The notes: generated by a model from the letters alone, not told the origin. Positions 15,377 through 59,683 are shown, counted from the stretch's first letter. The stretch: DNA of 64,000 bases from Candidatus Nomurabacteria bacterium (GCA_023898465.1 CP060223.1:128001-192000), one strand, 5' to 3'. Translations and numbers: made by a program.

Positions 15377-15442
15377 CATCCTCGCCAAGTTAAGGTTAAT
15401 GTATAGACAGACAAGACGGTGGCGCAAAAAGGCCATCGTATT

Positions 15443-31896: not shown

Positions 31897-31897
31897 T

Positions 31898-36469: not shown

Positions 36470-36476
36470 ATATATC

Positions 36477-44100: not shown

Positions 44101-44345
44101 AGCTTGGTCGTAACGTAACAGATGCGGTTGATCGTTTGAATAATATTCAGAGCAATGTAAAAGCTCCAGACTTAAAAAATGAAATAGGCGGTCTGGTAGA
44201 TAAATTGAAGACCCATCAGGAAAACGGAGAATCAATTCGCTTTAATCGAACCCCGGCTGATGAGCAGCGAGAATTCTTTAAGCGCAGTACAGAATTACTT
44301 GGTGAGGTGGGTAAGGTAATAAAAAAGTCAGTTAAAGAAAAGTAG
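41127..44345 (+). CDS. polytopic membrane protein, VirB6/TrbL-like (putative), with ~750 aa charged C-terminal extension
   Basis: 1072 aa. The N-terminal ~330 aa contain about 6 TM helices, a topology typical of VirB6/TrbL. The remainder is Lys/Glu-rich, coiled-coil-like and soluble. The family assignment rests on topology and context only. Confidence 0.6.
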   Translation: MKFFLRLTGRMREKRGLGPTVLVSVFIVAALVLFFPESRAYAASTGDKVALFFIENFMYPVVQFLANVLIVVINILVAVAQYNGFINAPAVEKGWVIVRDLSNMFFIVFLLIIAFGTIFKIEAYRYNRILGKLVIFAFLINFSKFVAGFWIDIGQVIMLTFVNGFKDAAAGNLASGLGLDKTLELSNSPLQNIDITSKALYGAIILALILLGIAVVVTLIITVLLLYRIVMLWILIVFSPLAFLTRIFPNTTKYSDQWWGEFNKNIIVGPVLAFFLWLSLTVIATSNGNLATDFQSVSTQETTGLLGTANEAGEGTGQTISAAITTIGESDRLLSYMITIGLLLGSLQAAQQLGAAGGRWAGSMSEKLKTGGLSAAGVLSGVAAARLALRGGKAGAERVGSTAWRTAVTKSKVGNRQILAPLTRKYWEGYAQRGAEQQQVLDRRMMARGRTMADIVRETKLYGGGGDLAVGTYIEDTERALINEGYNEKQKSLGKNPSSEKVVQEMWSAKAQKGEQGITSKNSGALLGARNGNWDDLNQMMFFNKELKSNIEKYGPDPDQIPADVKSKLLEEWGFSTDSAIDEWEDVVNESSKHMRVIMMNYLGLSRKYDPEYLAAQEAQKRGKNIHIMRREGEAGDAGAAKEYKEIMQKSQQQAMNEAKNAGIDDRNRLIALQWAGDEALSVGQHVEQRHGLFNEEEGYSYIGTLEKMADDSYGLLNKTESSKVMERMSPHAITPRYFDTETGEIDYNTDASEWSEIGKRMFKFFGKFTNREIGRMSGRVGEQIIGLDGVVGKKNVIFDAKGQFYEGEGTDEEKKARRAESQRRWEAMYSQDSLSAKKLYMKVFTGSADGFKDWDKGGQTIKGWTPPAPTEAEKAAVKKAEAEENTETANKATGEEKTSTSDTAQKDETKSPGGVVLTPGAQFKAEQEGEVKTSDRSSQTPSVEPSADEKAPYNREHMQASDSYGRLANSLTAYHDELPKSADELRTTISELGRNVTDAVDRLNNIQSNVKAPDLKNEIGGLVDKLKTHQENGESIRFNRTPADEQREFFKRSTELLGEVGKVIKKSVKEK

Positions 44346-44351
44346 TTTTTT

Positions 44352-45755
44352 ATGGTTACCTTTGAAGATTTTTACGAATATCACGACGTAGAGCGTCTAT
44401 CAGTCGAGGAAGTACAAAAGGCTGAGGTGTTAGCGGCTATTCGTGACGCATTAACACATGCCTGGTATCAAACCCAGCCTGGTAAGGCTCATTCGGTCCT
44501 TAGTTTTATCGACCAAAAATTTTCTACAATACCAAAGAGTACACTTCCTGAAGAGATAAAAACGCTCCTTTTTCAAATACAATGTATTGTCGAATTTTCT
44601 TCTCTCCCTTCCACCAGTCCGGAAGAAGTTCAAGAATACATGCAAAAGAAATCTCGGGTACCTCTTTTCATTGAAGAGCTTGAATTACAGGACATCATGC
44701 CGAGACTCATCCAGGTGCATTTAGGCTTCCCTGATTTGTTCTTACGTTGGTTTGGATCGGCAGTACAAGGCTTGCGAGCAGGTGAGCAAGAGATCGGCAA
44801 TTCTCGCATCCAATTGTTTAATGGTAAGGTGAGTAGTCCAACAATAGGCTCGTGGACGCAGGACTATGAACGATTTGCCGAAAATCATCCGGCTGATGGT
44901 GACGTAGTTATTGCTGAGTACATGACCAAGAGTCCGAATATTCGTTCCTTGGAAGATTCGGATAAAGCAGCCATTCGTAAGCTCTTTACTTGGTTTAACC
45001 TTTTATCAATCGATCAAAGTCCAATTTTGAGGGTGTCAGAGGCCAGTCGCCCGCGAGTAAGTCCTTCTAGTGTGTCAAAAATACCAGATACTCTTACACA
45101 AGAGCCAGATAATGATGTACTTGCACCAGTTGCCCCACAAAAGAGTATGGGTAAAATAAAACCTGTTCAAAGTGCAGCACAAGAGAAGCCGGAGCGAGAC
45201 GTGAGTCCACAAGAGTTATTACTCACTAATCTGCATAATTCAAGCAACCTAGTTGAGCGCTTTGAACGTTTAGAAAAAGATTTGCCCCCGGCTGGACCAA
45301 AGAGCATTATGCAACTTACTGCATTGGCGGAAAAAGCCTTAGCAGGGCAGGAGAAGTCAGGTCGTGTAATCGCTGGAATATTTCAAATAGTGCGAGCAAG
45401 GGGATTACAAGCCTTACTGAGCGACGCTTCATTTGTGAACCTTATGCGTAAGACAATGGCGCCGGAATTAGAGCAGCGTCTGCGCCTTACGCATGACCAG
45501 GCCGTGCAGGTAAGCGATTCACCGGCCAATCGCATGGTGATCTTAAAAGAGTTTTTTAAGGCTCTCTTTAATACTGCCACCGGATCTGAGGCTGATGCGG
45601 CACGCTTAATGGTGCATGTGGCAAGTATTGTGCCAGAAACAATGGCTGGTCCAGAAGCAGGTTTTGCCTATTTTGATATGAGCGACCAGCATTTCCACTG
45701 GTCTTTGACTGAAGTGCGCTCAGCCGATGGTGTGCTTCGTAACAGAATTCCGTAG
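44352..45755 (+). CDS. hypothetical cytoplasmic protein (467 aa)
   Basis: Clean ORF 7 nt after the upstream gene. No TM segment and no recognisable motif. It is the last gene of operon 1. Confidence 0.65.
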   Translation: MVTFEDFYEYHDVERLSVEEVQKAEVLAAIRDALTHAWYQTQPGKAHSVLSFIDQKFSTIPKSTLPEEIKTLLFQIQCIVEFSSLPSTSPEEVQEYMQKKSRVPLFIEELELQDIMPRLIQVHLGFPDLFLRWFGSAVQGLRAGEQEIGNSRIQLFNGKVSSPTIGSWTQDYERFAENHPADGDVVIAEYMTKSPNIRSLEDSDKAAIRKLFTWFNLLSIDQSPILRVSEASRPRVSPSSVSKIPDTLTQEPDNDVLAPVAPQKSMGKIKPVQSAAQEKPERDVSPQELLLTNLHNSSNLVERFERLEKDLPPAGPKSIMQLTALAEKALAGQEKSGRVIAGIFQIVRARGLQALLSDASFVNLMRKTMAPELEQRLRLTHDQAVQVSDSPANRMVILKEFFKALFNTATGSEADAARLMVHVASIVPETMAGPEAGFAYFDMSDQHFHWSLTEVRSADGVLRNRIP

Positions 45756-45772
45756 CCACAAAGCCCTCTTCC

Positions 45773-46102
45773 ATGCGGTTGACTTTTGCATTTCCGAGAA
45801 ACATGAATACATGGAGCCTTATGCGGCGTTTAGGGTATAGTCCAGATCGCCGGACAGGCTTCCCAGCCCAGCGTTCCGCAGCTCAGGAATCTAGCTATCA
45901 ACGACGATTGGGTCGATTGGTATACCCCCGATTTCATGTGTACGTAAACCAGGACAGCTCCGATCTTCTTGTGCTCAATATTCACGTAGATATGAAGAAA
46001 ACAAGCTATGAGGGTAGTCACGCTCATTCAGGTGAGTATGATGGACCTTTATTAGAAGAGGAAGCAGCTCGAATTCAGCAATATATCAGCGCAAGCCGCT
46101 AG
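45773..46102 (+). CDS. hypothetical protein (109 aa)
   Basis: ATG ORF lying in the gap between the two operons. No recognisable motif. Its GC content is slightly higher than that of neighbouring genes. Confidence 0.3.
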   Translation: MRLTFAFPRNMNTWSLMRRLGYSPDRRTGFPAQRSAAQESSYQRRLGRLVYPRFHVYVNQDSSDLLVLNIHVDMKKTSYEGSHAHSGEYDGPLLEEEAARIQQYISASR

Positions 46103-46158
46103 TTTTTGAAGCTAAAGACAGCTTGAGATAAATAGGCGATGTTTTTTATTTCTATTAC

Positions 46159-46187
46159 TTGGAATTTTCATAGCATTGTGGTATATT
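46159..46187 (+). promoter_or_regulatory. sigma70-like promoter (TTGGAA-17-TATATT) for the T4SS-like operon
   Basis: -35 TTGGAA at 46159..46164, 17 nt spacer, -10 TATATT at 46182..46187. It is about 80 nt upstream of the 46269 start, in an AT-rich 165 nt intergenic region. Confidence 0.45.
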
Positions 46188-46268
46188 ATCCCTAGTTATT
46201 CTCATACCAAAAACCTGTTTTTACGAGGAATTTGGATCAACTAAGGGGCGAACCGCAAAAAAGAAAAG

Positions 46269-47606
46269 ATGATAGATCTCGCAACGATTAATGCCAGTAC
46301 GATTGCTCAGCCGAAAACGCTGGAAGCAGTACGTGCAGAAGTCGATGATGTTGTCTCGCTAGGTGATGTATCGCGGGCAGGGGTTTTGTTATCGTATTTA
46401 CAGCGACAACTTCCCCAATCTCCAAATGATCCAATACGTAACAATTATCAAGAAATACTTCAATCGCTTGAACGGCTTGTTGGAGAGGCAAATCCCGCGG
46501 ATGATGCGCTCATTTCAGAAGAACGTACTCGTGTAGCAGTAAGAGATTCTTCGGGCAAGGTACAGCTCTTTAGTCATGGTCGCTTCCAGAGTCCAGAAGA
46601 GCAAAAACAGCAATTGCGCGAGCGTCCTTCCACTCCTCCGAGCTTCCGGAAGAGCATTGGAAATGTACAAAATAGTACTGAATCGCGAGCCGCGCAAAAG
46701 TCAGTCCCTGTTTCCTTTGATGTTCCGGAGGATGAAGAAGAGATTCGAGAGCATACCAATCGACTTTCCGGACTGCGTTTAAATGATCAGCATAATTATG
46801 AGGCAATGGTGGAGAGTATTATCTCCCATCATCATTTAGAGTTCCCAGATGAGCAGCTAGCGAAACGTTTCAGCACTATTGCAATCTCACGTTTGAAGGG
46901 TATTCGTGATGACAAAGAGGCAAAAGAAATCTTTACTCGTTCGCCAAAGGTCGGTGGCATGGGATTGGCGCCGGAATTAGCCGATGCGGTGCTGCAGTCT
47001 TTGGAGTCAGGCGCTGAAGTGCTTGATGAAAGCTTGCCTGAGGTGCATCCTCAACAGAAAGCGCACGTTCCGACGCCTACACCTCCAGCACCTTCGCGAG
47101 TGCTGCCACATCTAGCAAATCAGCCTACCAAGGTGATGGCGCATCAGGCTATCCCTACGCCGCCTCGTACGCAAACACCAGCAGCAACATCATCTGAGTC
47201 ACGCAAAGTACTTCCTAAGCGTCAAACAGTGCAGGCGAGCGGTCGTCCAACTTTAGACGATATTAAATCTCCTTCGCGTCGACTGGTTGGTCCGGTTGAG
47301 GAGTTGCAGCACCTAAGTCTAGAGGATTTTCGTAATTGGGGATCTACTCCAGCGGATAGTGTACGAAAAGTGTATGAGAAAATTGCCGTGCTTGGACAAG
47401 AATCATTTGGCAAACGCATTGAGGGTGTACAAGCCTGGCGTCAGAGTCCGGTGCATCAACTTTACTTATCCATTAGTCGTGAGAGTTTAGAAAAGGGGAC
47501 GGATGTGAGTAAAGTGATTAGTGAGCGGACGCAGCAAAATAAAGCCTCCTTGAGTGAGGCAGAGTTTCATGCGGTAGTTGATTTAAATACTAAGCTTCGT
47601 TTCTAA
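46269..47606 (+). CDS. hypothetical Pro-rich protein (445 aa), first gene of T4SS-like operon
   Basis: No TM segments. Central Pro/Thr-rich low-complexity region (PTPTPPAPSRVLP...PTPPRTQTPAATS). Its stop overlaps the next start (TAATG). Confidence 0.6.
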   Translation: MIDLATINASTIAQPKTLEAVRAEVDDVVSLGDVSRAGVLLSYLQRQLPQSPNDPIRNNYQEILQSLERLVGEANPADDALISEERTRVAVRDSSGKVQLFSHGRFQSPEEQKQQLRERPSTPPSFRKSIGNVQNSTESRAAQKSVPVSFDVPEDEEEIREHTNRLSGLRLNDQHNYEAMVESIISHHHLEFPDEQLAKRFSTIAISRLKGIRDDKEAKEIFTRSPKVGGMGLAPELADAVLQSLESGAEVLDESLPEVHPQQKAHVPTPTPPAPSRVLPHLANQPTKVMAHQAIPTPPRTQTPAATSSESRKVLPKRQTVQASGRPTLDDIKSPSRRLVGPVEELQHLSLEDFRNWGSTPADSVRKVYEKIAVLGQESFGKRIEGVQAWRQSPVHQLYLSISRESLEKGTDVSKVISERTQQNKASLSEAEFHAVVDLNTKLRF

Positions 47607-48118
47607 TGCAGTTTGTTGTACCTCAATTCATCGACGTAGAGGATAAAGTCATCGGGCCAATATCAGTGCGGCAGTTTATTCTGCTACTCGTTGGCGCTGG
47701 CATGATTTTCTTAGAGTACGAATTAATTTACCAGTTAAATAACAACATTTGGGTCTTTCTCTTTAGCGCAATTATTACTGGTTTGTTGGACATCGTTTTT
47801 GCCTTTGTGAAGGTGAACGGACGACCTTTTCATTTTTTTCTCCTCAACTTCTTAGTGACCATGCGTGATCCACGTTTACGTATCTGGAGTAAAGAAGTGA
47901 GCCTAAAGGATTTAAAGCGTGAACAGGCAAATGCAAATCCAGTTCAGACGGTAGTGGAGCCAACCAAAAAGTCGCTCACACCCTCAAAGTTGGCAATGCT
48001 TTCTTTGGTTGTTGATACTGGAGGAGCCTTTAAAGCTCCACAGAAGATTCGCGAGGGAAGTGTGAGCGTGAAGCGCGATGAGGCCCCCTCGTTAAGTGAT
48101 GATGAGTTTCGCAGTTAA
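47606..48118 (+). CDS. small membrane protein, VirB3/PrgI-like (putative)
   Basis: 170 aa. N-terminal TM hairpin (FILLLVGAGMIFLEY ... IWVFLFSAIITGLLDIVFAFV). It sits immediately upstream of the VirB4 ORFs, as VirB3-like proteins do in other T4SS operons. Confidence 0.5.
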   Translation: MQFVVPQFIDVEDKVIGPISVRQFILLLVGAGMIFLEYELIYQLNNNIWVFLFSAIITGLLDIVFAFVKVNGRPFHFFLLNFLVTMRDPRLRIWSKEVSLKDLKREQANANPVQTVVEPTKKSLTPSKLAMLSLVVDTGGAFKAPQKIREGSVSVKRDEAPSLSDDEFRS

Positions 48119-48127
48119 TATATTGTT

Positions 48128-48829
48128 ATGGCAGCAAAAAAAATTCAGGACAACAAAAAGAAGCGATCAGTAACGCCAACCCAGCGTTATATCGATATTC
48201 TTGAAGTGAAGGATGATATTGTCGTTCTAAAAGATGGCACGATTCGAGCTGTCCTTTTAGTATCCTCAATTAACTTTGCCCTGAAGTCAGAAGAAGAACA
48301 GAATGCGGTGATCGCCAGCTATACCCAGTTCTTAAACTCTTTAGACTTCTCTATTCAAATCGTTATCCAGTCTCGCCGTTTAAATATTGATGACTACCTC
48401 GAGCGATTAAAGCAGAGTGAGCGAGCGCAACGTAACGAGCTCCTCCGCATGCAGACAAGAGAGTATCGAGAGTATATTGCCGAGCTGATAGATATTGCCG
48501 ACTTAATGGCGAAGCGTTTCTACGTTGTTGTGCCATTTATGCCGCACTCTGATAAACCAAAACGTTTCTTCTCGCGCATACTTGAGGCAGTATCGCCATC
48601 GACAGTTATTCACCTTAAACAGCAGCAGTTTCTCACTTATCGCAGCGAACTTATGAAGCGGGTTGATTATGTTATTGATGGCTTGAGCGCAGCTGGCTTA
48701 AAGGCGGTTATGCTTGATACGCAGAGTTTAATTGAATTGTATTACAATACCTACAATCCAGAATCAGTTGGCCAGCAAAAGTTTGCTGATCTCTCAAAGG
48801 TAAATGTAGAAGGAGGCGGCAATGCCTGA
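48128..48829 (+). CDS. VirB4/TraC-like ATPase, N-terminal domain encoded as separate ORF
   Basis: 233 aa. The pattern IDILEVKDDIVVLKDGTIRAVLLVSSINFALKSEEEQNAVIASYTQFLNSLDFSIQIVIQS matches, by recollection, the conserved N-terminal region of Gram-positive-type VirB4 (TraE/PrgJ). It ends in ATGCCTGA, overlapping the downstream start by 8 nt. Confidence 0.65.
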   Translation: MAAKKIQDNKKKRSVTPTQRYIDILEVKDDIVVLKDGTIRAVLLVSSINFALKSEEEQNAVIASYTQFLNSLDFSIQIVIQSRRLNIDDYLERLKQSERAQRNELLRMQTREYREYIAELIDIADLMAKRFYVVVPFMPHSDKPKRFFSRILEAVSPSTVIHLKQQQFLTYRSELMKRVDYVIDGLSAAGLKAVMLDTQSLIELYYNTYNPESVGQQKFADLSKVNVEGGGNA

Positions 48830-50801
48830 TATTGATTTTTCCAAAGCAGCTGGCCAGACGCCTTCACCCTCGCCTTTACCAAAGTCAGAGCGGCAACGTC
48901 AGCAAGATGAGCGACTAGAGGCCGAGCAGGAGCGCGAACTACTTGAGGCTGAGCGGGTCTATCGAGCTGGAGTAGTTACTGTTCGCGATTTAATTGCTCC
49001 GGCGGCCATGAAAGTAGAGGCAGACTTCCTGCGATTGGGAAGTCAGTATGTCCGTACTCTCTTTGTTGTTTCATACCCGCGCTATATTACTGTTGGCTGG
49101 TTTGCGCCGATTATTAATTTCAATATCCCGCTAGATATCAGCATGTTCTTCTATCCGATTGAGTCAGCGGTTATTTTGAAGCAGTTGCGAAATAAGGTGG
49201 GTGTACTTGAAGCACAAATTATTTCCGATGCTGAGAAGGGCGCCCCGCGTGATCCAGTACGAGAGACAGCGCTTCGTGATATTGAAAAATTGCGAGATGA
49301 CTTAACGCAAGGTACAGAAAAGTTTTTTCAATTTGCGCTTTACGTAACCATTTACTCTTCGCGTAAAGACCACCTTGATTTACTGACAGAAAAGATCGAA
49401 TCAATTTTAGGAGGTCGATTAATTTACTCTAAGCGTGCCTTCTTCCAGGCTGAGCAAGGTTTCCACTCGACGCTTCCCCTAGGGAGTGATCAACTGCAGG
49501 TGACCTATAACATGAGTTCATCGCCGATTGCGTCGTCTTTCCCCTTCATTTCCTCTGATCTCACCTCAGATAATGGTATTCTCTACGGCATTAATCGCCA
49601 CAACAACAGCTTGATTCTCTTTGATCGTTTCAGCTTGCAGAACGCAAACTTTGTTGTCTTCGCCACGGCTGGAGCTGGTAAGAGCTACGCCATCAAGCTA
49701 GAGATTTTGCGTAGCTTAATGTTGGGCGCCGATGTCATCGTGGTAGATCCAGAAATGGAATATCGTCACTTATCTGATGCCGTTGGAGGGACCTACATTA
49801 ATATATCCCTGAATTCGGATTCAAAGATTAACCCCTTTGACCTACCGCGCCCGTCTCGCGAAGATGAAAAACCGGCTGATATTATTCGTTCCGCCGTTAT
49901 TACCTTAAAGTCTCTCATTCGTCTGATGTTGGGCGAGTTAAATCACGAAGAAGATTCTTTGATTGACCGGGCATTATTAGAGACGTACGCGAAGAAGGAT
50001 ATTACCCCAGATTCAGATTTGCAGAATATAGACCCGCCACTTATGAAGGATTTTGAAGAGGTCTTAGGCGATATGGTGGGAACAGAAGATCTCGTGCAGC
50101 GTTTGAAAAAATACACTGAAGGTACTTTTGCCGGCCTCTTTAACAGCGCTACAAATATTGAATTAAATAATCAGCTCGTAGTGTTCTCGGTACGTGATCT
50201 CGAGGATGAATTACGACCAATCGGAATTTCCACAATTGTCTCTTATATTTGGAATATTGTACGTTCTCAACTGAAGCGTCGCATCCTCGTGATTGATGAG
50301 GCGTGGTGGCTCATGCAACATGAGGACTCAGCTAAGTTTATTTATGCTTTAGTGAAGCGATGTCGTAAATATTATCTTGGAGTAACGACTATTACGCAGG
50401 ATGTGAATGACTTCTTGCGATCACCCTATGGCCAAGCGATTGTAAACAACTCCGCTTTACAGTTACTTATGAAGCAATCGCCAGCCGGTATTGATATCGT
50501 GCAGAAGACTTTCTTGCTCACTCAAGGTGAAAAGTATCTCTTACTTGAGTGTAATGTAGGTGAGGGTATTTTCTTCGCTGGAGCAAAACACGCGGCTATT
50601 AAAGTTGTAGCGAGTTATACCGAGGACCAAATTATTACCTCTGATCCACGCCAGCTCCTAGAGATCGAACAAGCTAAGGAAGAATTCGATGAAGCTTATG
50701 CGGCCGGTCAAACTGATTTGCCGCAAGATCAATTCGGCACAGCAAAAAATGAGCCACTCGAAGCAAAGCGTTCGCTAAGTGATACGGAGGGCTTAGGTTA
50801 G
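48822..50801 (+). CDS. VirB4/TrbE/CagE-like type IV secretion ATPase (C-terminal ATPase portion)
   Basis: 659 aa. Walker A FATAGAGKSY, Walker B ILVIDEAWWLM, and the conserved GVTTITQD motif. No TM segment, consistent with a VirB4 ATPase domain. Confidence 0.85.
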   Translation: MPDIDFSKAAGQTPSPSPLPKSERQRQQDERLEAEQERELLEAERVYRAGVVTVRDLIAPAAMKVEADFLRLGSQYVRTLFVVSYPRYITVGWFAPIINFNIPLDISMFFYPIESAVILKQLRNKVGVLEAQIISDAEKGAPRDPVRETALRDIEKLRDDLTQGTEKFFQFALYVTIYSSRKDHLDLLTEKIESILGGRLIYSKRAFFQAEQGFHSTLPLGSDQLQVTYNMSSSPIASSFPFISSDLTSDNGILYGINRHNNSLILFDRFSLQNANFVVFATAGAGKSYAIKLEILRSLMLGADVIVVDPEMEYRHLSDAVGGTYINISLNSDSKINPFDLPRPSREDEKPADIIRSAVITLKSLIRLMLGELNHEEDSLIDRALLETYAKKDITPDSDLQNIDPPLMKDFEEVLGDMVGTEDLVQRLKKYTEGTFAGLFNSATNIELNNQLVVFSVRDLEDELRPIGISTIVSYIWNIVRSQLKRRILVIDEAWWLMQHEDSAKFIYALVKRCRKYYLGVTTITQDVNDFLRSPYGQAIVNNSALQLLMKQSPAGIDIVQKTFLLTQGEKYLLLECNVGEGIFFAGAKHAAIKVVASYTEDQIITSDPRQLLEIEQAKEEFDEAYAAGQTDLPQDQFGTAKNEPLEAKRSLSDTEGLG

Positions 50802-50817
50802 CATTAACCTCAAATTT

Positions 50818-51396
50818 ATGCGTAGAATTTTTATCATCATCATCGCGCTTGTACTCTTGATTACCATTGCTGCCCTCATTCTCATCTGGATTGGTGGGGG
50901 AGACGCTTTTAATACCAACGAAAACACCAACACCACAACAAATACTAGCTTGCCGCTTGCAAATACAAATACCACAGTAAACAATAACGTGAATTCGAGT
51001 GTAGATGTTTCCCCTCAGAGCACCTTAATCGGTCAAGGGCGAAGTTTTGCCGAGCGATATGCCAGCTGGTCTCGAGCCGACTTTGATGAGTATATTAGTA
51101 GTCTCAGCGCCTGGATTACTCCTTCCTTCGCAACCGTGCTACAAACAGATAATGAAGCTCTTGATGCGGCAAAAACCGTTCAGTCGGTATCAAGTCGTGT
51201 ATTAACTAGCTCCTATAAGTCCTGGGAAGAGGATAGCTCAGCAAGTATTTCATTTGTGATGGATCGCACAGAACGACGCGACAATGAGCCAGATGCTCAC
51301 TATTATGAAACCTTGGTACTTGACTATACTTTCCTAAATGGAGAGTGGATGGTAAATGGAGCAAGTTGGCAGCCATCACGAGTCCAGCCTGAATAA
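50818..51396 (+). CDS. membrane-anchored hypothetical protein with Asn/Thr-rich linker
   Basis: N-terminal TM segment (IFIIIIALVLLITIAALILIWIG). An NTNENTNTTTNTS low-complexity linker is followed by a ~120 aa globular domain. Confidence 0.55.
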   Translation: MRRIFIIIIALVLLITIAALILIWIGGGDAFNTNENTNTTTNTSLPLANTNTTVNNNVNSSVDVSPQSTLIGQGRSFAERYASWSRADFDEYISSLSAWITPSFATVLQTDNEALDAAKTVQSVSSRVLTSSYKSWEEDSSASISFVMDRTERRDNEPDAHYYETLVLDYTFLNGEWMVNGASWQPSRVQPE

Positions 51397-51418
51397 TCAG
51401 AATCTTTGCAGTATTTTC

Positions 51419-52552
51419 ATGAGCTTTCGCTATAAAAAATTCGTTGTAGGAATGCTCACCGTTTTTCTCGGGTTTGGGGCGAGCTTTGTAGTCTCACCAG
51501 CTTCGGCACAGACAAGTTTACCCACCTGCTCATCAAGCGAGGTTTTAAATCAAATCGCTGATCACATGCAGCTCAATGTAGCGCTTCCAGGGATTACTAA
51601 CACAGTACAGTGCCTTTCGGAAACAGGTGACCAAGTAAAAACTATCCACGTTTTACAAGCAGAGTCAGGTCAGGAGCTTTCTACGTTTGTGAGAGGCTTC
51701 TATGTGTACTTTGTCTGGATTGTTGGTATTTTAGCAGTCGTGATGACTATGTACGCTGGCATTCAATGGTTAACTGCTGCTGGCAATACTTCACGGATTG
51801 AGAATGCTAAATCTACGATGAATGGTGCGCTTATCGGACTTGTATTGACGCTTACTTCATATGTTATTTTACAGGCAATTAATCCTGATTTAGTGACATT
51901 ACGAGTGCCTTTTGTTGAGCCGGTTGAAACAAGTGTTATTTCTGGGACATTTTGTCCACCAGCCCAGCAGACACAAGCTGAAAATTCAGGTCTGGTGTGC
52001 GGCGAACAACTCAAGTACTCGGATGCAAATGGTGCTGAGCACTTTTGTTTAAGTAGCGCCTGTCGAGCTGCTGATGGGGGAACTGATTGTCTGCCTTGCA
52101 CAGGGGACGGTGTTCCGTACGTGTTTTGTAAGGATCGTGGATACACCTGCGGTTACTACGACTCATTTATTTCAGTGGGGGCTACCATTACTAACTTAGT
52201 GCCAGATAAAGAACTAAAGTCGTTGAAGTTATATCGTACTAACCCAAATGCGCTTGAGGATGATAATGAATTACCATGGAAGCTTGTCAAAGAGTTTAAT
52301 GCAGATCAATTAACCGAAGGCGCGGTGCTGGAATTTACGAGCGATGATTCAGTCCCCCTTATCCAGTTTAAGTTTTCTGCGACATTCCGTGAAAGTTTTT
52401 GGAGTAATCGAGATTGTGACGCAGTAAATCCCGATGGATCAGTAAAACAACTATGGTTTGAATTACCCTATGCGCCTGGGTCAGTTGTTCACCAAGATTT
52501 TACTTTTGATATTCAAGGCATTTACAATAACAGCGAAGGCTGTATTGGTTAA
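51419..52552 (+). CDS. secreted protein with VirB2/TrbC-like pilin hairpin and Cys-rich C-terminal domain (putative T4SS pilin-like)
   Basis: Start moved to the ATG at 51419 (MSFRYKKFVVGMLTVFLGFGASFVVSPASA signal peptide). The conserved segment FYVYFVWIVGILAVVMTMYAGIQWLTAAGNTSRIENAKSTMNGALIGLVLTLTSYVILQAINP forms two TM helices with a loop, a VirB2-like topology. It is about 90% identical to the corresponding segment of 54446..55636. Confidence 0.6.
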   Translation: MSFRYKKFVVGMLTVFLGFGASFVVSPASAQTSLPTCSSSEVLNQIADHMQLNVALPGITNTVQCLSETGDQVKTIHVLQAESGQELSTFVRGFYVYFVWIVGILAVVMTMYAGIQWLTAAGNTSRIENAKSTMNGALIGLVLTLTSYVILQAINPDLVTLRVPFVEPVETSVISGTFCPPAQQTQAENSGLVCGEQLKYSDANGAEHFCLSSACRAADGGTDCLPCTGDGVPYVFCKDRGYTCGYYDSFISVGATITNLVPDKELKSLKLYRTNPNALEDDNELPWKLVKEFNADQLTEGAVLEFTSDDSVPLIQFKFSATFRESFWSNRDCDAVNPDGSVKQLWFELPYAPGSVVHQDFTFDIQGIYNNSEGCIG

Positions 52553-52563
52553 TCACTATTCAT

Positions 52564-53814
52564 ATGGAATTACCCTCACTTTCACGAAATCGAGTACTAG
52601 CTATTTTTGGCTTCTTGGTCGTACTCTTCATTCTTGGCTTCTTGCTTTTCTGGGCTTTTTTCCGCACCGATACCGCCGTAAATGGTAATACCAACACTAC
52701 CTCAAATGGTCGTTTACCAAACACCAATGATGGAGTGAATCGATCAACTACAAATACAAATAGCGTGAGTGTTTTACCGATCACTAATACACAGATAGAG
52801 GTGCCAAGCGCCACTGCCGATGGCGGGAAAACCATTGCGCAATCTTTAGTTGACACCCCTTCGGCAAATATTGCCTTAGCCGGAAATGGTGTTGATCTGA
52901 TTTATTACGAGGAGCTGAGTGGGAAATTCTATCAGCTTGATAGAAATGGCGTGGAGCGAAAAGTATTGAACGACACTACTTTTAAAGGAGTCTCGGATGT
53001 AGCCTGGTCACCAAACCGACAACGTGCCGTGCTTACTTTCAAAGACGGTGCAAATATTGTGTATGATTTTTCCAAGCAGCAGCAGATATCACTACCAACC
53101 GAGCTGCAAGAATTTTCCTTTTCACCTGATTCCGCGCAAATTGCCGCAAAGTTTATTGGTCCGACAAAGGATGATAATTGGCTGGCCGTCGTAGATGTAA
53201 ATGGGGGAAACGTGCAGGTTGTTGAGCCTTTGCGGGATAAGGAAAATCAAGTGCAGGTAAACTGGTCTCCAAACTCGCAAATTGTCGCCACCTATCAGCA
53301 GTCAATTGATAGTGAACGTCAAGAAATTGTTCCTCTAGGTATCCAAGGCGAGAATTTTAAATCCTTCGAAGTTGAGGGGAGGGGTTTTGAAGGAAAGTGG
53401 GACCAAAGTGGAAATAGGCTTCTTTATAGCGTTTACAGTTCATCATCCTCAATGAATCCAGAGTTGTATATTGTGCAGGCGAGGGGCGATGCAATTGGTG
53501 AAAGTAATACACGACTAAATCTGCAAACCTGGCCAGATAAGTGTGCCTTTACCTCGAGTGCTACTAAGGTATATTGTGCGGTTCCGCAGGGTCTAGAAAG
53601 TGGTAGTGGTCTCTATCCAGAGCTAGCAAATAGCGTGCCATATCAATTTTATGAGATTAATCTCAGCACGGGTGTACAGCAGCTGATCGCGACGCCTACT
53701 AATACAACAGGTGAAACAAGGTACTCGGTGGGTAATGTATATTTGTCAGGCGCTGAGGATCAAATCTATTTCACTGATCAGGATGGTAAGATTCGTACAA
53801 TTAAGTTGCGATGA
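52564..53814 (+). CDS. membrane-anchored beta-propeller (TolB/PD40-like) protein
   Basis: TM anchor, then an Asn/Thr-rich linker, then repeated WSPN motifs (VAWSPNRQRAVLTF; VNWSPNSQIVATY) typical of PD40/TolB-like beta-propeller blades. Confidence 0.6.
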   Translation: MELPSLSRNRVLAIFGFLVVLFILGFLLFWAFFRTDTAVNGNTNTTSNGRLPNTNDGVNRSTTNTNSVSVLPITNTQIEVPSATADGGKTIAQSLVDTPSANIALAGNGVDLIYYEELSGKFYQLDRNGVERKVLNDTTFKGVSDVAWSPNRQRAVLTFKDGANIVYDFSKQQQISLPTELQEFSFSPDSAQIAAKFIGPTKDDNWLAVVDVNGGNVQVVEPLRDKENQVQVNWSPNSQIVATYQQSIDSERQEIVPLGIQGENFKSFEVEGRGFEGKWDQSGNRLLYSVYSSSSSMNPELYIVQARGDAIGESNTRLNLQTWPDKCAFTSSATKVYCAVPQGLESGSGLYPELANSVPYQFYEINLSTGVQQLIATPTNTTGETRYSVGNVYLSGAEDQIYFTDQDGKIRTIKLR

Positions 53815-54449
53815 TGGAGAATAAGAAGCATAATTGGCTCTTACCTTTATTAGTAGCGCTTGCTGCCATAGTCCTGATTGGGTTTACCTGGTGGACTATT
53901 AGCATCCCAACTACGCCGAATCTTTCCACGCGTTTCCCAACTGTACATTTAACTGATCCGGTTCGCGGCGGACAAGATGCGCAGGTGACTATTGTTGAGT
54001 ATAGCGACTTCCAATGTGAATTTTGTCAGACTTGGCATACGGTTGCTCAGCAGATACTAGATAAATATGGCGACAAGGTAAGATTGGTATGGAAAGACTT
54101 TCCCTTAACCGATCTACACCCAGAGGCAAAAGCAGCCGCAGAAGCAGCGCGTTGTGCTCAGCAGCAATTTGCTTTTTGGGAATACCACGATCAACTTTTT
54201 GCACGTCAGAGCGAGTTAGGCACAGCGCTTTATACTGATATTGCCCAAGACCTTGGCCTAGATGCACAAGCCTTTACTCGTTGCCGAGGTTCAGGTGATG
54301 CAGACACTTTCATTACGCAGAGTCAGCAGGAAGGCGTGACCCTTGGGGTAAGTGGCACGCCAACCATCTACGTTGGTCAATACATTTTCAAAGAAGCGCC
54401 AAGTTTTTCTACGGTTGATTCACTTGTTTCTTCATTACTGTCTGAATGA
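53811..54449 (+). CDS. DsbA-family thiol:disulfide oxidoreductase
   Basis: TM anchor and a CxxC active site (FQCEFCQTWH) in a thioredoxin fold. Overlaps the upstream gene by 4 nt. Confidence 0.8.
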   Translation: MMENKKHNWLLPLLVALAAIVLIGFTWWTISIPTTPNLSTRFPTVHLTDPVRGGQDAQVTIVEYSDFQCEFCQTWHTVAQQILDKYGDKVRLVWKDFPLTDLHPEAKAAAEAARCAQQQFAFWEYHDQLFARQSELGTALYTDIAQDLGLDAQAFTRCRGSGDADTFITQSQQEGVTLGVSGTPTIYVGQYIFKEAPSFSTVDSLVSSLLSE

Positions 54450-55636
54450 AGCGAAGGGATCTTTTCTTTATCTTACTCGTGGGAATTGTTGGGGGAGCTT
54501 TTTTCTCTTTGCAGACGCCGACAGCCCAGGCTTCAGAATGTTGTTGTGTAGAAATTGAAGTAGTGGGAGGAGCACCGATACAGGACTGTAAGGTGTTGGA
54601 TGAATGTGCCTTACCTTATTTACCAACAGATCTTGACCCACTCCAATGTGCAGGTGTAAACACAGATATTGAGTCAAGCACTACAAGTGATCCGATTTAT
54701 TTTACGCCTAACGCACCTATCCCAGGAGTTTTTGAAGGACCACAAGAAGTAGACGGCACACTACTGAGTCGCTACATTCGCTCTTTCTATATTTATTTTG
54801 TTTGGATTGTTGGTATCTTAGCAGTAGTGATGACAATGTACGCTGGCATCCAATGGTTAACCGCGGCCGGTAATACTTCGCAAATAGAGAATGCTAAATC
54901 CACCATGAACGGAGCCCTGGTTGGTTTAGTGTTAACGCTGACCTCGTATATTATTTTACAGGCGATTAATCCAGCACTTGTGACGCTTCAAGACCTCTCT
55001 ATCTTTTCAGTTCCAAGTCAGTTGATAGGAGAAAAAGGAGAATCAAGTGCGCGGGGTGATACCGCCGCAGGTTTACCAGAATCAATACAGGATTTAAGTG
55101 GAGTGAGTAATGTCACCAAGTGGGACGACCTGATTCGAACGATAAGTAATGAGAATAACGTCAATCCATATTATGTGAAAGCAATCATGATGATTGAGTC
55201 GCGCGGAAATGCAAACGCGATTTCACCCGTTGGCGCATGCGGATTGATGCAGGTAATGCCGGCAAATGCGAATGGCGTATGCCTGGTCGGTGAAGCACGA
55301 GCAGAGGAGAATATTCGAGCTGGTGTAAATCTCATTGCTCGACTCATTCGAAATACCTGTCCGAGCTCAGCTAGTCTAAAAAGTGGTAAAACTGTGGAGT
55401 GTAATCCACAACAGACAAATTGCTATAACGGCAGCTGGCATTATGTGATTGCGGCATATAATGGAGGAGTGGGGGCTAATTGCTCCTCACAGACTTGTGC
55501 GCCGGCTGGACCAGGCTTAAAAGGTCAGACGTGGTGGGAATGCACAGATAATGGTGGCTTTGCGGAAACTAGAAATTATGTAAAATCGGTAGAAAAGATG
55601 TATACTATTGTGCAAGGTTGGGGGGGTCTGAACTAA
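54446..55636 (+). CDS. fusion protein: VirB2-like pilin hairpin + lytic transglycosylase (SLT/VirB1-like) domain
   Basis: Signal peptide. The conserved hairpin FYIYFVWIVGILAVVMTMYAGIQWLTAAGNTSQIENAKSTMNGALVGLVLTLTSYIILQAINP is shared with the paralog at 51419..52552. The C-terminal SLT motif is VKAIMMIESRGNANAISPVGACGLMQVMP. Confidence 0.8.
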   Translation: MKRRDLFFILLVGIVGGAFFSLQTPTAQASECCCVEIEVVGGAPIQDCKVLDECALPYLPTDLDPLQCAGVNTDIESSTTSDPIYFTPNAPIPGVFEGPQEVDGTLLSRYIRSFYIYFVWIVGILAVVMTMYAGIQWLTAAGNTSQIENAKSTMNGALVGLVLTLTSYIILQAINPALVTLQDLSIFSVPSQLIGEKGESSARGDTAAGLPESIQDLSGVSNVTKWDDLIRTISNENNVNPYYVKAIMMIESRGNANAISPVGACGLMQVMPANANGVCLVGEARAEENIRAGVNLIARLIRNTCPSSASLKSGKTVECNPQQTNCYNGSWHYVIAAYNGGVGANCSSQTCAPAGPGLKGQTWWECTDNGGFAETRNYVKSVEKMYTIVQGWGGLN

Positions 55637-55646
55637 GAATTTTTGC

Positions 55647-56990
55647 ATGCGTAACAGCACCCTATTTGTTTGCTCAAAATGTGATGCGCAGTATAGTAGC
55701 TGGCAGGGCCGATGTGCCGAGTGTCAGGCTTGGGGTACTCTAGAGCCAGCCAATGCCAGCGCTAGCGATCAAATGGTTAGCGCAACAAAGCCGGCTGCAG
55801 CTACACCCTTGCATGAATTACGCGGCTCAAATGTTGAGCGATTTAGTACGGGCATAGCAGAATGTGATCGCGTATTAGGTGGCGGGATAGTTCCCGGAGC
55901 AATGTTATTACTGGCTGGCGCGCCGGGTATTGGAAAATCAACTTTAGTGTTGCAACTTGCTTCCCATATTGCGAAGGGCGGCAAAGTGCTCTATGTCTCG
56001 GGTGAGGAATCCGGGGAGCAAGTAAAATTACGTCTTGATCGGCTTGGTTTATCAGCGGAAAATATTGACTTCATCAGTAGCACCGTAATTGAGCCATGCT
56101 TGGCAGCAGCTGATAAACTGAAGCCTCGCCTCATTATTTTTGATTCAGTGCAGACACTCGCTTCGTCCAGTATTCCCTCCGAGGCTGGCACTGTTGGACA
56201 AGTGCGCACGGTTACGAACCTGGCGATGCACTATGCAAAAAATCATACCGTGGCCACTTTACTCATTGGTCACGTGACAAAAGAGGGGGTAACCGCTGGT
56301 CCAAAAACACTGGAGCACTTAGTAGATACTGTACTTTCCTTAGAAGGCGATAATAAGCATCAGTTTCGCTTATTGCGTAGCAGTAAAAATCGCTTTGGCA
56401 CAACCAATGAAGTTGGAGTATTCACGCTCGAGGAAAAAGGATTACGCGAAGTTGCTAATCCATCCGAGCGCTTCTTAGAAGAACGACAGCAGGGTAGTGG
56501 ATCAGTTGTCACAGCAACGATGGAGGGCACTCGAGCTTGGTTAGCAGAGATTCAGGCTCTAGTAAATCCCTCTGTCTTTGGCATGCCGCGACGCTCAGCA
56601 ACTGGAGTTGATGGACAACGTTTGCAGCTTATTCTAGCAGTTTTAACGAGACGAGCAGGTCTGCAATTGGGGACTCAAGATGTATTTGTGAATGTGGTTG
56701 GAGGTATTAGCGTGCGTGAGCCAGCCGCCGATCTCGCTATCGCACTCGCAGTAGCTTCTGCTTTTCGAAATGTTTCGTTTGATTCACACACGGCCATGCT
56801 GGGAGAGATAGGCTTAGGCGGTGAGGTGCGAAGTGTGGGACAAATCGAGCAGCGTGTAAGAGAGCTTGAGCGTATGGATTTTAAGAGAGTGCTGGTGAGT
56901 GCAAAGACCAAGATGAAAAAAAGTGGGATTGAAATTATCCCGGTTGCCACAGTAAAGGACGCCATTACTGCTCTTTTACCAAAAGCTTAG
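55647..56990 (+). CDS. radA: DNA repair protein RadA/Sms
   Basis: N-terminal C4 zinc finger (CSKCDAQYSSWQGRCAEC). RecA-like Walker A GAPGIGKSTL. KNRFG motif. C-terminal Lon-like domain. Confidence 0.9.
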   Translation: MRNSTLFVCSKCDAQYSSWQGRCAECQAWGTLEPANASASDQMVSATKPAAATPLHELRGSNVERFSTGIAECDRVLGGGIVPGAMLLLAGAPGIGKSTLVLQLASHIAKGGKVLYVSGEESGEQVKLRLDRLGLSAENIDFISSTVIEPCLAAADKLKPRLIIFDSVQTLASSSIPSEAGTVGQVRTVTNLAMHYAKNHTVATLLIGHVTKEGVTAGPKTLEHLVDTVLSLEGDNKHQFRLLRSSKNRFGTTNEVGVFTLEEKGLREVANPSERFLEERQQGSGSVVTATMEGTRAWLAEIQALVNPSVFGMPRRSATGVDGQRLQLILAVLTRRAGLQLGTQDVFVNVVGGISVREPAADLAIALAVASAFRNVSFDSHTAMLGEIGLGGEVRSVGQIEQRVRELERMDFKRVLVSAKTKMKKSGIEIIPVATVKDAITALLPKA

Positions 56991-57625: not shown

Positions 57626-59683
57626 TTACTCCCAGTGCACTGCATCATGCCGAATTGTTTCAAGTAACCCTGGCCACTTCTCCAGGTTGACGTCTTGTTG
57701 CAATAGCTCTTTCGCAATATCGCGAGTATGAGCAATAAGCTCAATATCTTGGAGTGACGCCATGCGAAAATCAGGTAAACCGGATTGTCGGCCTCCGCGT
57801 AATTCACCGGGCCCGCGGCGCTTCAGGTCTTCTTCAGCTACGGCAAAACCGCTCCTGGTTGCCGCGAATTTTTTCAGACGACCACTTGTTTCTGATTGAC
57901 TTAAGAGGAAGCAATACGATTGGGCGTCACCTCGGCCGACTCGTCCACGAAATTGATGCAGTTGCGCTAGACCAAAACGTTCAGCATTTTCAATCACCAT
58001 CACGCTTGCATTTGGCACATCTATGCCTACCTCGATGACTGCAGTTGCTACTAGGATGTCATAGTGATGATCAGCAAAGTCACGCATAATCTTTTCTTTT
58101 TCCTTGCTCCCAAGTTTGCCGTGCAGGAGTGCTACACGGAGTTTAGGGAAGACATGCTTTTGTAATTCTTCCGCCATATGCGTGGCAGCTTTGACGCCCA
58201 GCAAGTCGGATTCATCTATGAGCGCGGTAATGACAAAAGCTTGTCGACCTTGCGCAATTTGTTGTGCAATAAAGCCGTACATTTCCTTTCGCTTTGCCTC
58301 GGGAATGAGATGCGTTCTTATAGGCTTACGATTTTTTGGCATTTCGGTGATCGTGCTGATATCCAAATCGCTATAGAGAGTAAGCGCTAGGGTGCGGGGG
58401 ATCGGCGTTGCGGTCATGGAGAGAAAGTGTGGCTCTGTACTTAATGCTGTGCCAGTTTTTTCTTTAAGGAGTTTACGCTGAGCCACCCCGAAGCGATGCT
58501 GCTCGTCAATGATGATAAGTCCGAGACTTTGGAATTGAACATCTTCAACTAACAGGGCGTGAGTGCCAATCACCAACTGGATGCTTCCCTGGCCAATTTC
58601 TTTTTTGAGCTGCGATTTTTTAATAGCATCATTTCTATTTGCCTTTGCTTGGGATCCAGTTAAAAGAGCGATAGTTATTGACGTGTCCTGCAGGGTTTTT
58701 TGTATACTTTGGAAATGCTGCTCAGCCAGTACTTCAGTTGGTGCCATGATGGCAACTTGATGTTTGCTCCACATAGTGTTAAGAGCAGCCAAGATGGCTA
58801 CTAGGGTTTTTCCTGATCCGACATCACCCTGCAGTAAGCGATTCATTGGGTGGGCCTCGTTCATGCTCTGAATAATTTCCCAGGCTGCATTACGCTGTCC
58901 ATTGGTTAAGGTGAAGGGGAGCGTCGCTACAAAGTCTTTTGTTGCTTTTTCATGAAACTCAATCTTGGGTGCTGCAGCATGATGCAGTTGTGCGCGGTGC
59001 ATTTGATTATGTAACTGGAAACGCAGCAACTCATCAAAGGCAAGTCGAGCTCGCGCGGCCCTTAGTGCAGCATAGGTTTTTGGGAAGTGAATATCCCGTA
59101 CGGCAGTCTCGAGCTTTGGTAGCTTTTCGCTTTGACGGATTTTTGTTGGTAGAGGATCTTTAATCTCTTCCACGCAGGGTAGTGCCTGTTGCACCAAGTA
59201 GCGGAGGTACTTTGGCGTCAAACCATCAGTAACTGGATAGATAGGCACAATGCGTCCGGTATGCGTTTGTTCATCCTTCACTGGCTCGAAACTTGGATTG
59301 GTCATTTGCAGGCTGCCATCCTTTGCCAGGCTTGGTGTGCCGCTGACAATTATTTCCTCGTTATTCTCTAAACTCTTGGCGATATAGGCTTGATTAAACC
59401 AGACAAGCTTCAGATAACCACTCTCATCTTTCACAGCCGCTTCAGTAATACTCATCCGGCGACGGAAGCTACGACGGGCTCCAAGCAGCTCAACATGCAC
59501 ACGCACACTCGCTGCTATCCCAGCCTGCAAGCGAGAAATAGGGATGACTTGCGAAAAATCCTCATAGCGAAAAGGGTAATGCTGCAGCAGTTGGCGTACG
59601 TTTTGGATACCGAGACGTTGAAGCGCTTGAGCGATTTTTGGTCCTACTCCACGCAGTTGGGTAAGCGGTGTTTTGAGGTCCAT
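57626..59683 (-). CDS. recG: ATP-dependent DNA helicase RecG
   Basis: 685 aa. N-terminal wedge/OB region. Helicase motif I GDVGSGKT, motif II IIDEQHRFG, and QxxGRxGR motif (HQFRGRVGRG). Confidence 0.9.
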   Translation of the reverse strand: MDLKTPLTQLRGVGPKIAQALQRLGIQNVRQLLQHYPFRYEDFSQVIPISRLQAGIAASVRVHVELLGARRSFRRRMSITEAAVKDESGYLKLVWFNQAYIAKSLENNEEIIVSGTPSLAKDGSLQMTNPSFEPVKDEQTHTGRIVPIYPVTDGLTPKYLRYLVQQALPCVEEIKDPLPTKIRQSEKLPKLETAVRDIHFPKTYAALRAARARLAFDELLRFQLHNQMHRAQLHHAAAPKIEFHEKATKDFVATLPFTLTNGQRNAAWEIIQSMNEAHPMNRLLQGDVGSGKTLVAILAALNTMWSKHQVAIMAPTEVLAEQHFQSIQKTLQDTSITIALLTGSQAKANRNDAIKKSQLKKEIGQGSIQLVIGTHALLVEDVQFQSLGLIIIDEQHRFGVAQRKLLKEKTGTALSTEPHFLSMTATPIPRTLALTLYSDLDISTITEMPKNRKPIRTHLIPEAKRKEMYGFIAQQIAQGRQAFVITALIDESDLLGVKAATHMAEELQKHVFPKLRVALLHGKLGSKEKEKIMRDFADHHYDILVATAVIEVGIDVPNASVMVIENAERFGLAQLHQFRGRVGRGDAQSYCFLLSQSETSGRLKKFAATRSGFAVAEEDLKRRGPGELRGGRQSGLPDFRMASLQDIELIAHTRDIAKELLQQDVNLEKWPGLLETIRHDAVHWE

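Follow-up and report, generated by a model that had tools for sequence, protein, structure and literature searches.

What might a type IV secretion system (T4SS) be for when the genes that encode it are accompanied by neither a coupling protein nor a relaxase? The question is raised by a gene cluster at positions 46,159 to 55,636 of a 64,000-nucleotide stretch of DNA from Candidatus Nomurabacteria bacterium (GCA_023898465.1 CP060223.1:128001-192000), here called the window, in which an earlier note, made from the sequence alone, had recognized a T4SS-like locus and suspected a previously undescribed, non-conjugative machine. The present study supports much of that proposal, and we are confident that the locus encodes a T4SS of the type carried by most of the ultra-small Patescibacteria (CPR). 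With moderate confidence, we also favor a fuller reading in which it is a chromosomal, vertically inherited system of this type, derived from the MPF-FATA class of mating-pair formation systems, arranged as in the class ABY1, and engaged in a non-conjugative role in contact with a host cell. The argument draws on the parts list and predicted topology of the encoded proteins, on intact catalytic motifs, and on the chromosomal context and deep conservation of the locus.

The system itself has already been described. In the Saccharibacterium Southlakia epibionticum, both the T4SS and its pilins are essential, and no coupling or relaxase proteins could be recognized (Wang et al. 2023, Cell, PMC10633639). 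A phylum-wide survey detected VirB4 in 2,417 of 3,035 Patescibacteria genomes and placed these proteins in a single clade within MPF-FATA (Quinonero-Coronel et al. 2025, Microb Genom, PMC12102498), and a FEMS review lists the Patescibacteria T4SSs as newcomers to the superfamily (PMC12857230). In the survey, TrsD, encoded by a separate gene, was the commonest partner of VirB4, in the company of PrgI, VirB6, VirB2-like pilins, and almost no relaxases (PMC12102498). Thus, the suggestion of novelty does not stand, and the earlier interpretation was right in kind and wrong on the VirB8 component and on the organism. Its non-conjugative reading is the one favored in the literature, and it agrees with a housekeeping chromosomal context and with 64 kb in which coupling protein, relaxase, and VirB11 are lacking.

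A split VirB4 and its membrane platform

The VirB4 ATPase at the heart of the locus is encoded by two genes (features lie on the plus strand unless stated otherwise). The larger, at 48822..50801, specifies the C-terminal two thirds of a VirB4 of the CD1110, or MPF-FATA, type. Specifically, it matches positions 156-729 of the NCBIfam model conju_CD1110 with 352.6 bits against a curated cut-off of 325, matches Pfam P-loop_TraG (E 2.6e-30), and retains intact Walker A (GAGKS, aa 284), Walker B (RILVIDEAW, aa 487), and TQD (aa 525) motifs. The smaller gene (48128..48829) is TrsD-like and corresponds to the N-terminal domain of VirB4, its product aligning with the ~130 N-terminal residues of VirB4 models in NCBIfam (VirB4_plasma positions 94-233, E 3e-12; TrsD, E 4.5e-7; CD1110 positions 11-136) and carrying a precomputed Pfam match to the TraC-like family PF26593. 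These matches bear out the earlier assignment of both genes to a VirB4 with Walker A/B and TQ motifs. The TrsD-like domain is a separate gene in all relatives examined. A frameshifted VirB4 was considered and rejected, the two-gene state being universal in the clade. The best-matching models are those of CD1110 and of Mycoplasma VirB4, in keeping with the Gram-positive-like, monoderm-type T4SS that had been proposed and with an MPF-FATA relationship, a class placement which, as judged from sequence, follows that of the survey (PMC12102498). The class unites VirB4s from Firmicutes, Actinobacteria, Tenericutes, and Archaea. The best plasmid-borne VirB4 matches come from Bacillota and Actinomycetota, at 28-35% identity.

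Partners of VirB3, VirB6, and VirB8 type are all encoded alongside VirB4. The first, at 47606..48118, had been described as a VirB3-like small transmembrane (TM) protein and is now identified as a member of the PrgI family, an analogue of VirB3, with two TM helices and a Pfam PrgI match (E 1.5e-8) of 35.5 bits, where the cut-off is 27. A VirB6-like protein had been assigned to the upstream operon. The product of the gene at 41127..44345 has the expected build, with six TM helices in its first ~285 aa followed by a hydrophilic tail of ~790 aa, but its Pfam TrbL match (E 4.2e-5) scores 23.8 bits, slightly under the gathering score of 25.9, and it has no sequence match in the PDB. It is, tentatively, a probable extended VirB6-like protein, and in 52 of the 87 loci searched a homologue of its TM domain is encoded no more than 10 kb from VirB4.

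The VirB8-type partner is the component on which the earlier note erred. VirD4, relaxase, and VirB11 had been reported as not seen in the window, and VirB8, VirB9, and VirB10 as not recognizable there. Our Pfam scans, which covered every open reading frame (ORF) of at least 161 aa and several shorter ones, likewise find no coupling protein, relaxase, VirB11, VirB9, or VirB10 in the 64 kb; VirB8, however, has a candidate. Directly after VirB4, the gene at 50818..51396 encodes a 192-aa bitopic protein in which an N-terminal TM helix is joined by an Asn/Thr-rich linker to an NTF2-like domain at the C terminus. An AlphaFold2 model of this protein (pLDDT 85) gives CagV, PrgL, TcpC, and TraE as its top Foldseek matches, so that in predicted topology and modeled fold it is a VirB8-fold protein. 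It escapes detection by sequence profiles, the PrgL profile reaching only E = 1, which explains why it was missed at first reading. A profile search gathered 83 members of this family, and with profile hidden Markov models (HMMs) the protein was recovered in 38 of 39 related loci, in 37 of them directly after VirB4.

An additional protein is bound to the platform genes by its position. The gene at 46269..47606 encodes a predicted cytoplasmic protein of 445 aa and is found directly upstream of PrgI in 39/39 related loci, a linkage to VirB4 as tight as that of PrgI and TrsD. Conserved blocks are evident in its alignment. It has no match in Pfam, NCBIfam, or the PDB, a lenient Pfam scan of the whole family was also empty, and the T4SS literature consulted makes no mention of it. 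Upstream of it, at 44352..46102, lie genes for two lineage-specific proteins of 467 and 109 aa, predicted to be cytoplasmic and without TM segments, which likewise lack Pfam and NCBIfam matches and occur in just three of the 39 loci. Paralogy between the 445-aa and 467-aa proteins is not detectable.

How deeply the locus is conserved was assessed with VirB4 as the anchor. When one genome was scanned for each GTDB species, at least 593 species-level genomes proved to have a relative of this VirB4, with identities of 68-88%. Where the sources of relatives sharing 72-88% identity have names, they are metagenome-assembled genomes of Patescibacteria, many of them called Kerfeld-, Falkow-, Magasanik-, Uhr-, Komeili-, or Buchananbacteria. 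Five relatives with 75-88% VirB4 identity were compared gene by gene and have the order 445-aa protein, PrgI, TrsD, VirB4, a TM protein of ~200 aa, pilin, propeller, (DsbA), pilin+SLT, RadA, and a convergent RecG. Among the 39 loci with enough flanking DNA, the core from the 445-aa protein through PrgI, TrsD, and VirB4 to the VirB8-like protein is kept in 38-39: PrgI and the TrsD-like gene, like the 445-aa gene, are found in 39/39. A hairpin protein and a beta-propeller protein were each counted in at least 23/39, a hairpin+SLT fusion as a single ORF next to the locus in at least 5/39, RadA downstream in 13-18/39, and RecG in 29/39. Single-sequence tblastn undercounts the divergent VirB8-like and SLT genes (10/39 and 5/39); for the VirB8-like gene, profile HMMs raised the count to 38/39.

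These relatives also bear on the identity of the organism. The locus had been discussed in connection with Saccharibacteria, but the window comes from a Patescibacteria metagenome-assembled genome, the nearest VirB4 relatives are named Kerfeld-, Falkow-, Magasanik-, Uhr-, and Komeilibacteria, and the radA/recG context is that of ABY1 (PMC12102498). The window organism therefore belongs with ABY1-type relatives and is not a Saccharibacterium, and its VirB4 would, judging from identity, be a member of the Patescibacteria clade. Most GTDB record titles among the VirB4 matches are likewise of Patescibacteria type. As a side observation, the title "uncultured Gammaproteobacteria bacterium" is given to many representative GTDB contigs that encode a VirB4 of this kind, and Methylomirabilis and Planctomycetota to one each; these look like placeholder or wrong names.

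Conservation of this kind also speaks to whether the locus works at all. A decaying, functionless remnant might be suspected from a VirB4 split in two genes and from the loss of several expected parts. However, the split is the normal state across the clade and recurs in a Bacillota relative, the catalytic motifs of VirB4, of the lytic transglycosylase, and of DsbA are intact, VirB4 is highly conserved across hundreds of species, and the genes are tightly packed with operon-like overlaps. We regard decay as extremely improbable. It was rejected, as was an origin as an integrative and conjugative element (ICE), discussed below, on the evidence of the window and of conservation.

Hairpin proteins and other exported components

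Two exported proteins of the cluster contain a VirB2-like hairpin, as had been proposed, and both match Pfam T4SS_pilin above the gathering score; together with the CD1110 match of VirB4, this bears out a T4SS gene cluster at this position. The first, of 377 aa (51419..52552, E 3e-10; the ORF is open from 51356), begins with a signal or anchor segment, continues with the hairpin, and ends in a Cys-rich ectodomain of ~210 aa. The second, of 396 aa (54446..55636, E 1.3e-8), carries in addition a VirB1-type SLT lytic transglycosylase domain (E 3.4e-15) with ES, GLMQ, and AYNGG motifs; across 82 sequences, E251-S252, G266, Q269, and Y338-N339 do not vary. In its structural model (pLDDT 85), the hairpin helices span residues 106-139 and 144-174 and the SLT domain residues 214-392, the latter giving Foldseek matches to LtgA, Slt70, MltF, MltC, and MltE. 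Motifs and model together indicate that the fusion is real and its SLT domain probably active.

The fusion had been considered an oddity. When 1.84 billion cluster representatives were searched in full with HMMER, 21,647 matches were obtained, and among the best 150 of these, 90 align in one stretch over hairpin and SLT, while 45 cover the hairpin only. In a set of 82 representatives at 50% identity, Pfam recognizes SLT in 82 and T4SS_pilin in 76, and both domains are thus found in 76/82. By these sequence matches, the hairpin+SLT fusion is a widespread family with a common architecture.

Whether the two proteins should be called pilins depends on what the term implies. Each has a signal sequence and a two-helix hydrophobic hairpin that matches pilin profiles. 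As encoded, neither resembles the small mature subunit of about 70-120 aa that polymerizes into a pilus, their lengths being 377 and 396 aa with C-terminal domains of ~200 aa. The hairpins themselves form a 200-nt direct repeat (51698..51897 and 54785..54984) with 81% DNA identity and 82% protein identity, and many of the DNA differences fall at third codon positions and are apparently synonymous; the rest of the two proteins is unrelated. The combination of high protein identity, third-position differences, and unrelated remainders points to strong constraint, that is, purifying selection, on the hairpin, with the heads behaving as modules.

In an alternative view, the locus builds no more than a pilus or adhesion organelle: hairpin proteins assembled by the VirB4 platform would present adhesive and wall-degrading heads for host attachment or wall breach, and no substrate would pass through a channel. 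Two proteins with a near-identical hairpin and different large ectodomains would suit such a role, as would the recurrence of the hairpin with other heads (45 of the best 150 representatives being hairpin only) and the presence of giant Cys-rich surface proteins in the same gene string. Pilin arrays are, moreover, essential in Southlakia (PMC10633639). For display alone, however, the VirB6-like and VirB8-like channel parts would be needless, and they are retained and conserved. This objection is itself qualified, since pilus biogenesis in diderm systems also needs VirB6 and VirB8. We consider a purely display function quite unlikely.

The product of the gene at 52564..53814 is anchored in the membrane and combines an Asn/Thr-rich linker with a probable, tentatively assigned beta-propeller domain, whose best Pfam propeller match (E 7.2e-6) scores far under the cut-offs, with faint Tricorn and THOC3 matches in orthologues and no sequence match in the PDB. 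The propeller of the earlier description is thereby retained at this sub-threshold level, and its TolB-like label goes beyond what these matches show. As had also been noted, the Asn/Thr-rich linkers are a shared trait of membrane-anchored proteins of the locus: in this protein and in the VirB8-like protein, they follow the N-terminal TM anchor and consist of about 50% N/T/S. At 53811..54449 is a gene for a membrane-anchored DsbA-like thiol-disulfide oxidoreductase (Thioredoxin_4, E 2.1e-29; DSBA, E 2e-17; CEFC motif at aa 69), in agreement with the DsbA originally proposed. The hairpin proteins contain 12 and 14 Cys and the giant proteins 26-93, compared with 0-2 in the cytoplasmic proteins of the locus; because the predicted exported proteins are Cys-rich and the cytoplasmic ones are not, the DsbA of the operon has an obvious job.

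Three giant, N-terminally anchored, Cys-rich proteins of 2046, 1523, and 1563 aa, with 93, 26, and 81 Cys, are encoded at 25756..41123, between KsgA and the VirB6-like gene, and contain CBM_4_9, Big_7, and fn3-like domains. Of these, only the 1563-aa protein has homologues near VirB4 in other genomes. Its gene (36432..41123) is directly upstream of the VirB6-like gene, and it has an N-terminal hydrophobic segment as its anchor and a weak fn3-like Pfam match only. Homologues are found upstream of VirB4 in about 18 other loci, and it is probably a system-associated component, a candidate adhesin or surface protein.

Genomic setting and possible function

The cluster is embedded in what appears to be an ordinary stretch of chromosome. 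In an ORF and gap analysis of the window, plus-strand genes are packed tightly in one string from 18614 to 56990, and the gaps after 24887 are all 22 nt or less, with the sole exception of one of 166 nt (46103..46268); within the locus, the genes show overlaps typical of operons. Position 46159, from which the cluster had been dated, corresponds to a promoter-like match in that gap (46159..46187, TTGGAA-17-TATATT with TG upstream). Promoter-like and terminator-like sites in the region show no excess over shuffled sequence, so the operon boundaries are drawn from gene spacing alone and the site at 46159..46187 is a weak promoter candidate.

By Pfam, the upstream flank comprises genes for leucyl-tRNA synthetase (LeuRS), a major facilitator superfamily transporter, TsaC, and KsgA, and the downstream flank genes for RadA, an HD hydrolase, and RecG, all of housekeeping character. 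The RadA (Sms) recombination protein (55647..56990; zinc ribbon, AAA_25/KaiC, Lon_C/ChlI) starts 10 nt past the last T4SS gene and is a conserved neighbor that is not a known T4SS part. The RecG helicase gene (57626..59683, minus strand; RecG_wedge, DEAD, Helicase_C) is convergent and likewise a conserved neighbor. Also in the window is a gene for a ComM-like ATPase of the Mg-chelatase family (15419..16957). ComM, RadA, and RecG have recombination or transformation roles in other bacteria. Two further observations concern this flank. The 1194-aa LeuRS (18614..22198) has an alpha/beta-hydrolase insert at residues ~250-450 (Abhydrolase_1/6 and Ser_hydrolase matches), placed after the first half of the catalytic domain and ahead of the editing domain, which is unusual for LeuRS. 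In addition, a cell-wall hydrolase with LysM and Peptidase_M23 domains is encoded on the minus strand at 17059..18402, ~28 kb upstream of the T4SS core; LysM/Peptidase_M23-type domains have been noted in some VirB1-like proteins (PMC12102498).

This setting has to be weighed against the possibility that the locus belongs to an ordinary ICE whose relaxase, coupling protein, and origin of transfer (oriT) lie outside the window. The VirB4 class is otherwise conjugative, genes for coupling proteins frequently lie at a distance from virB4, and 103 Patescibacteria genomes carry relaxases (PMC12102498). However, the window contains neither a relaxase nor a type IV coupling protein (T4CP; VirD4 or TcpA) with an oriT, and the hallmarks of a mobile element are equally lacking: the scans found no integrase domain, there is no tRNA at the cluster borders (the only tRNAs of the window are at 62 kb), the cluster is not flanked by attachment-site (att)-like direct repeats (the pilin hairpin pair is the sole repeat of note), and GC content is flat at 0.43-0.49 over the 64 kb, without a compositional shift. 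The same chromosomal neighbors, moreover, accompany the locus even where VirB4 identity has fallen to 75%, and 99.3% of VirB4s have their nearest relative in the same class, which indicates vertical descent (PMC12102498). An ICE is very unlikely on this evidence. Because relaxase, coupling protein, and mobile-element hallmarks do not accompany the locus within the 64 kb, it would not mediate conjugation.

The tight radA and recG linkage can also be read differently, as a sign of a machine resembling the Helicobacter ComB system that would import DNA or nucleotides, taking host or environmental DNA through the wall and handing it to recombination functions. A set of VirB2, VirB3, VirB4, VirB6, and VirB8 without VirB11, VirD4, or relaxase amounts to the ComB set minus its outer-membrane parts, and the position of radA, the conserved, convergent recG, and the ComM-like ATPase in the same window would all fit. 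In ABY1, the loci are linked to comF, recG, and radA (PMC12102498), and T4SS-mediated uptake has been proposed as a possibility (PMC11665869). Several observations argue against this alternative, in particular the fact that competence in Southlakia depends on type IV pili and ComEC, where deletion of comEC abolishes transformation and leaves viability unaffected, the T4SS being essential (PMC10633639, PMC12857230). Within the loci compared here, radA is downstream in fewer than half (13-18 of 39), and as radA and recG are housekeeping genes, their proximity may reflect a conserved chromosomal neighborhood only. We judge a DNA import machine unlikely.

We return to the reading favored here, a Patescibacteria-type T4SS with a non-conjugative role in host contact, for which the components suggest a mechanism. 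TrsD and VirB4, docked by PrgI, would supply the energy for building a membrane channel that includes the VirB8-like and VirB6-like proteins. The hairpin-tethered SLT would open peptidoglycan locally, and the hairpin proteins and the anchored propeller would build a short pilus or filament, or a wall-spanning conduit, with the heads of the hairpin proteins folded oxidatively by the DsbA of the operon. The machine could then serve contact-dependent exchange with a host cell, either export of effectors or other proteins or import of host material. A bolder version can be envisaged in which the VirB2-like hairpin is a modular anchor that polymerizes on the VirB4 platform into a filament with interchangeable heads, the SLT is aimed at host peptidoglycan and not at the cell's own wall, the whole acts as a wall-breaching "drill" by which the epibiont reaches its host, and the 445-aa protein replaces the missing coupling protein. 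As a joint proposal this is distinctly improbable.

Several points weigh against the host-contact reading. The role of these T4SSs has been called "completely unknown", with effector delivery and uptake both mentioned (PMC11665869), and for the window organism no substrate, effector, or host is known. The absence of a coupling protein applies to the 64 kb of the window, and in most Patescibacteria genomes VirD4-like matches lie far from virB4 (PMC12102498). The VirB6-like and beta-propeller assignments fall below curated thresholds, polymerization of ~400-aa proteins with an internal VirB2 hairpin into a pilus is putative, and the close linkage to radA and recG might instead indicate a role in DNA handling.

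A large share of bacterial diversity belongs to the Patescibacteria, and no T4SS before theirs had been shown to be essential for the growth of the cell that owns it. The window adds no new class of system to this picture. It provides a complete and clear-cut example, drawn from an ABY1-type lineage not in cultivation, together with some small additions: a near-universal VirB8-like protein, an invariably linked 445-aa protein, and the large size of the hairpin+SLT family. The overall picture is unchanged, but the VirB8-like protein, the 445-aa protein, and the hairpin-tethered SLT are targets for structural and genetic work on the function of the machine.

Comparison with known systems

The closest likeness is to the Patescibacteria-clade T4SS, as exemplified by SEML1_0006-0019 of Southlakia ML1 (PMC10633639, PMC12102498). 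Both are chromosomal and have an MPF-FATA-related VirB4, a separate TrsD gene, and PrgI/VirB3, VirB6-like, and VirB2-like pilin genes beside virB4, with relaxase and coupling protein not nearby; the radA and recG linkage, with KsgA near, is shared with ABY1 loci of this clade. There are also clear differences. In place of an array of six divergent pilins, the window encodes two hairpin proteins that are long (~380-400 aa) and bear large heads, and their hairpins are 82% identical to each other compared with at most 54% within pilin arrays (PMC12102498). The lytic enzyme in the window is an SLT fused to a hairpin, whereas separate genes for a peptidase and a lysozyme have been reported in Southlakia, and the VirB8-fold protein present here was not detected there. 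The beta-propeller, the DsbA, and the 445-aa protein are not mentioned in either paper (PMC10633639, PMC12102498). It is in Southlakia, too, that comEC has been found dispensable for viability (PMC10633639).

Gram-positive conjugative systems of the MPF-FATA class, such as those of pGO1/pIP501 (trsC-trsD-trsE), pCF10 (PrgI/PrgJ/PrgL/PrgH), and the Clostridioides difficile element CTn2 (CD1110), are related more distantly. CD1110 provides the best curated VirB4 model, and like the locus in the window these systems have a PrgI-family VirB3 analogue and a dedicated peptidoglycan hydrolase and are without outer-membrane core proteins; the VirB8-fold bitopic protein resembles their PrgL, TraM, or TcpC. 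In pGO1/pIP501, a TrsD-like gene precedes VirB4, the same order as here. However, the VirB4 proteins are only 28-35% identical, relaxase, T4CP, oriT, and a PrgB-type adhesin are not seen in the window, and the locus studied here has VirB2-like hairpin proteins and is chromosomal and vertically inherited. Two proteins of a Mycoplasma ICE, the pilin-like Mbov_0395 and the VirB4 Mbov_0397, are represented among the matches as well, through the NCBIfam models Mbov_0395 and VirB4_plasma.

The resemblance to Helicobacter pylori ComB lies in composition: both lack VirD4, VirB11, and relaxase and have VirB2-, VirB3-, VirB4-, VirB6-, and VirB8-like parts, and in the window recombination genes adjoin them. 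ComB, a diderm system, additionally includes B7, B9, and B10. Sequence affinity does not extend past the superfamily level, and the likeness to an uptake system is one of gene content and radA/recG linkage.

Of the plasmid-borne systems, the closest match looked at in detail is on a megaplasmid of Pontibacillus sp. ALD_SL1 (NZ_CP062975, 351801..361354), which carries a mini T4SS cluster next to flagellar genes, with no relaxase annotated nearby; the megaplasmid is typed as non-mobilizable. This cluster has a separate TrsD-like gene (E 2e-27), a 621-aa VirB4 that is 35% identical, a large peptidoglycan hydrolase beside VirB4, and a pilin-like protein that is 33% identical over the hairpin. It differs from the locus in the window in that the pilin is short (151 aa) and unfused, the hydrolase is of M23 type, beta-propeller and DsbA are lacking, and the host is a free-living member of the Bacillota. 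Since the Pontibacillus cluster carries a pilin-like hairpin, VirB2-like hairpins are not confined to the Patescibacteria among monoderms. Moreover, its similarity to the locus suggests that VirB2-like hairpins and a split VirB4 predate the Patescibacteria or extend beyond them.

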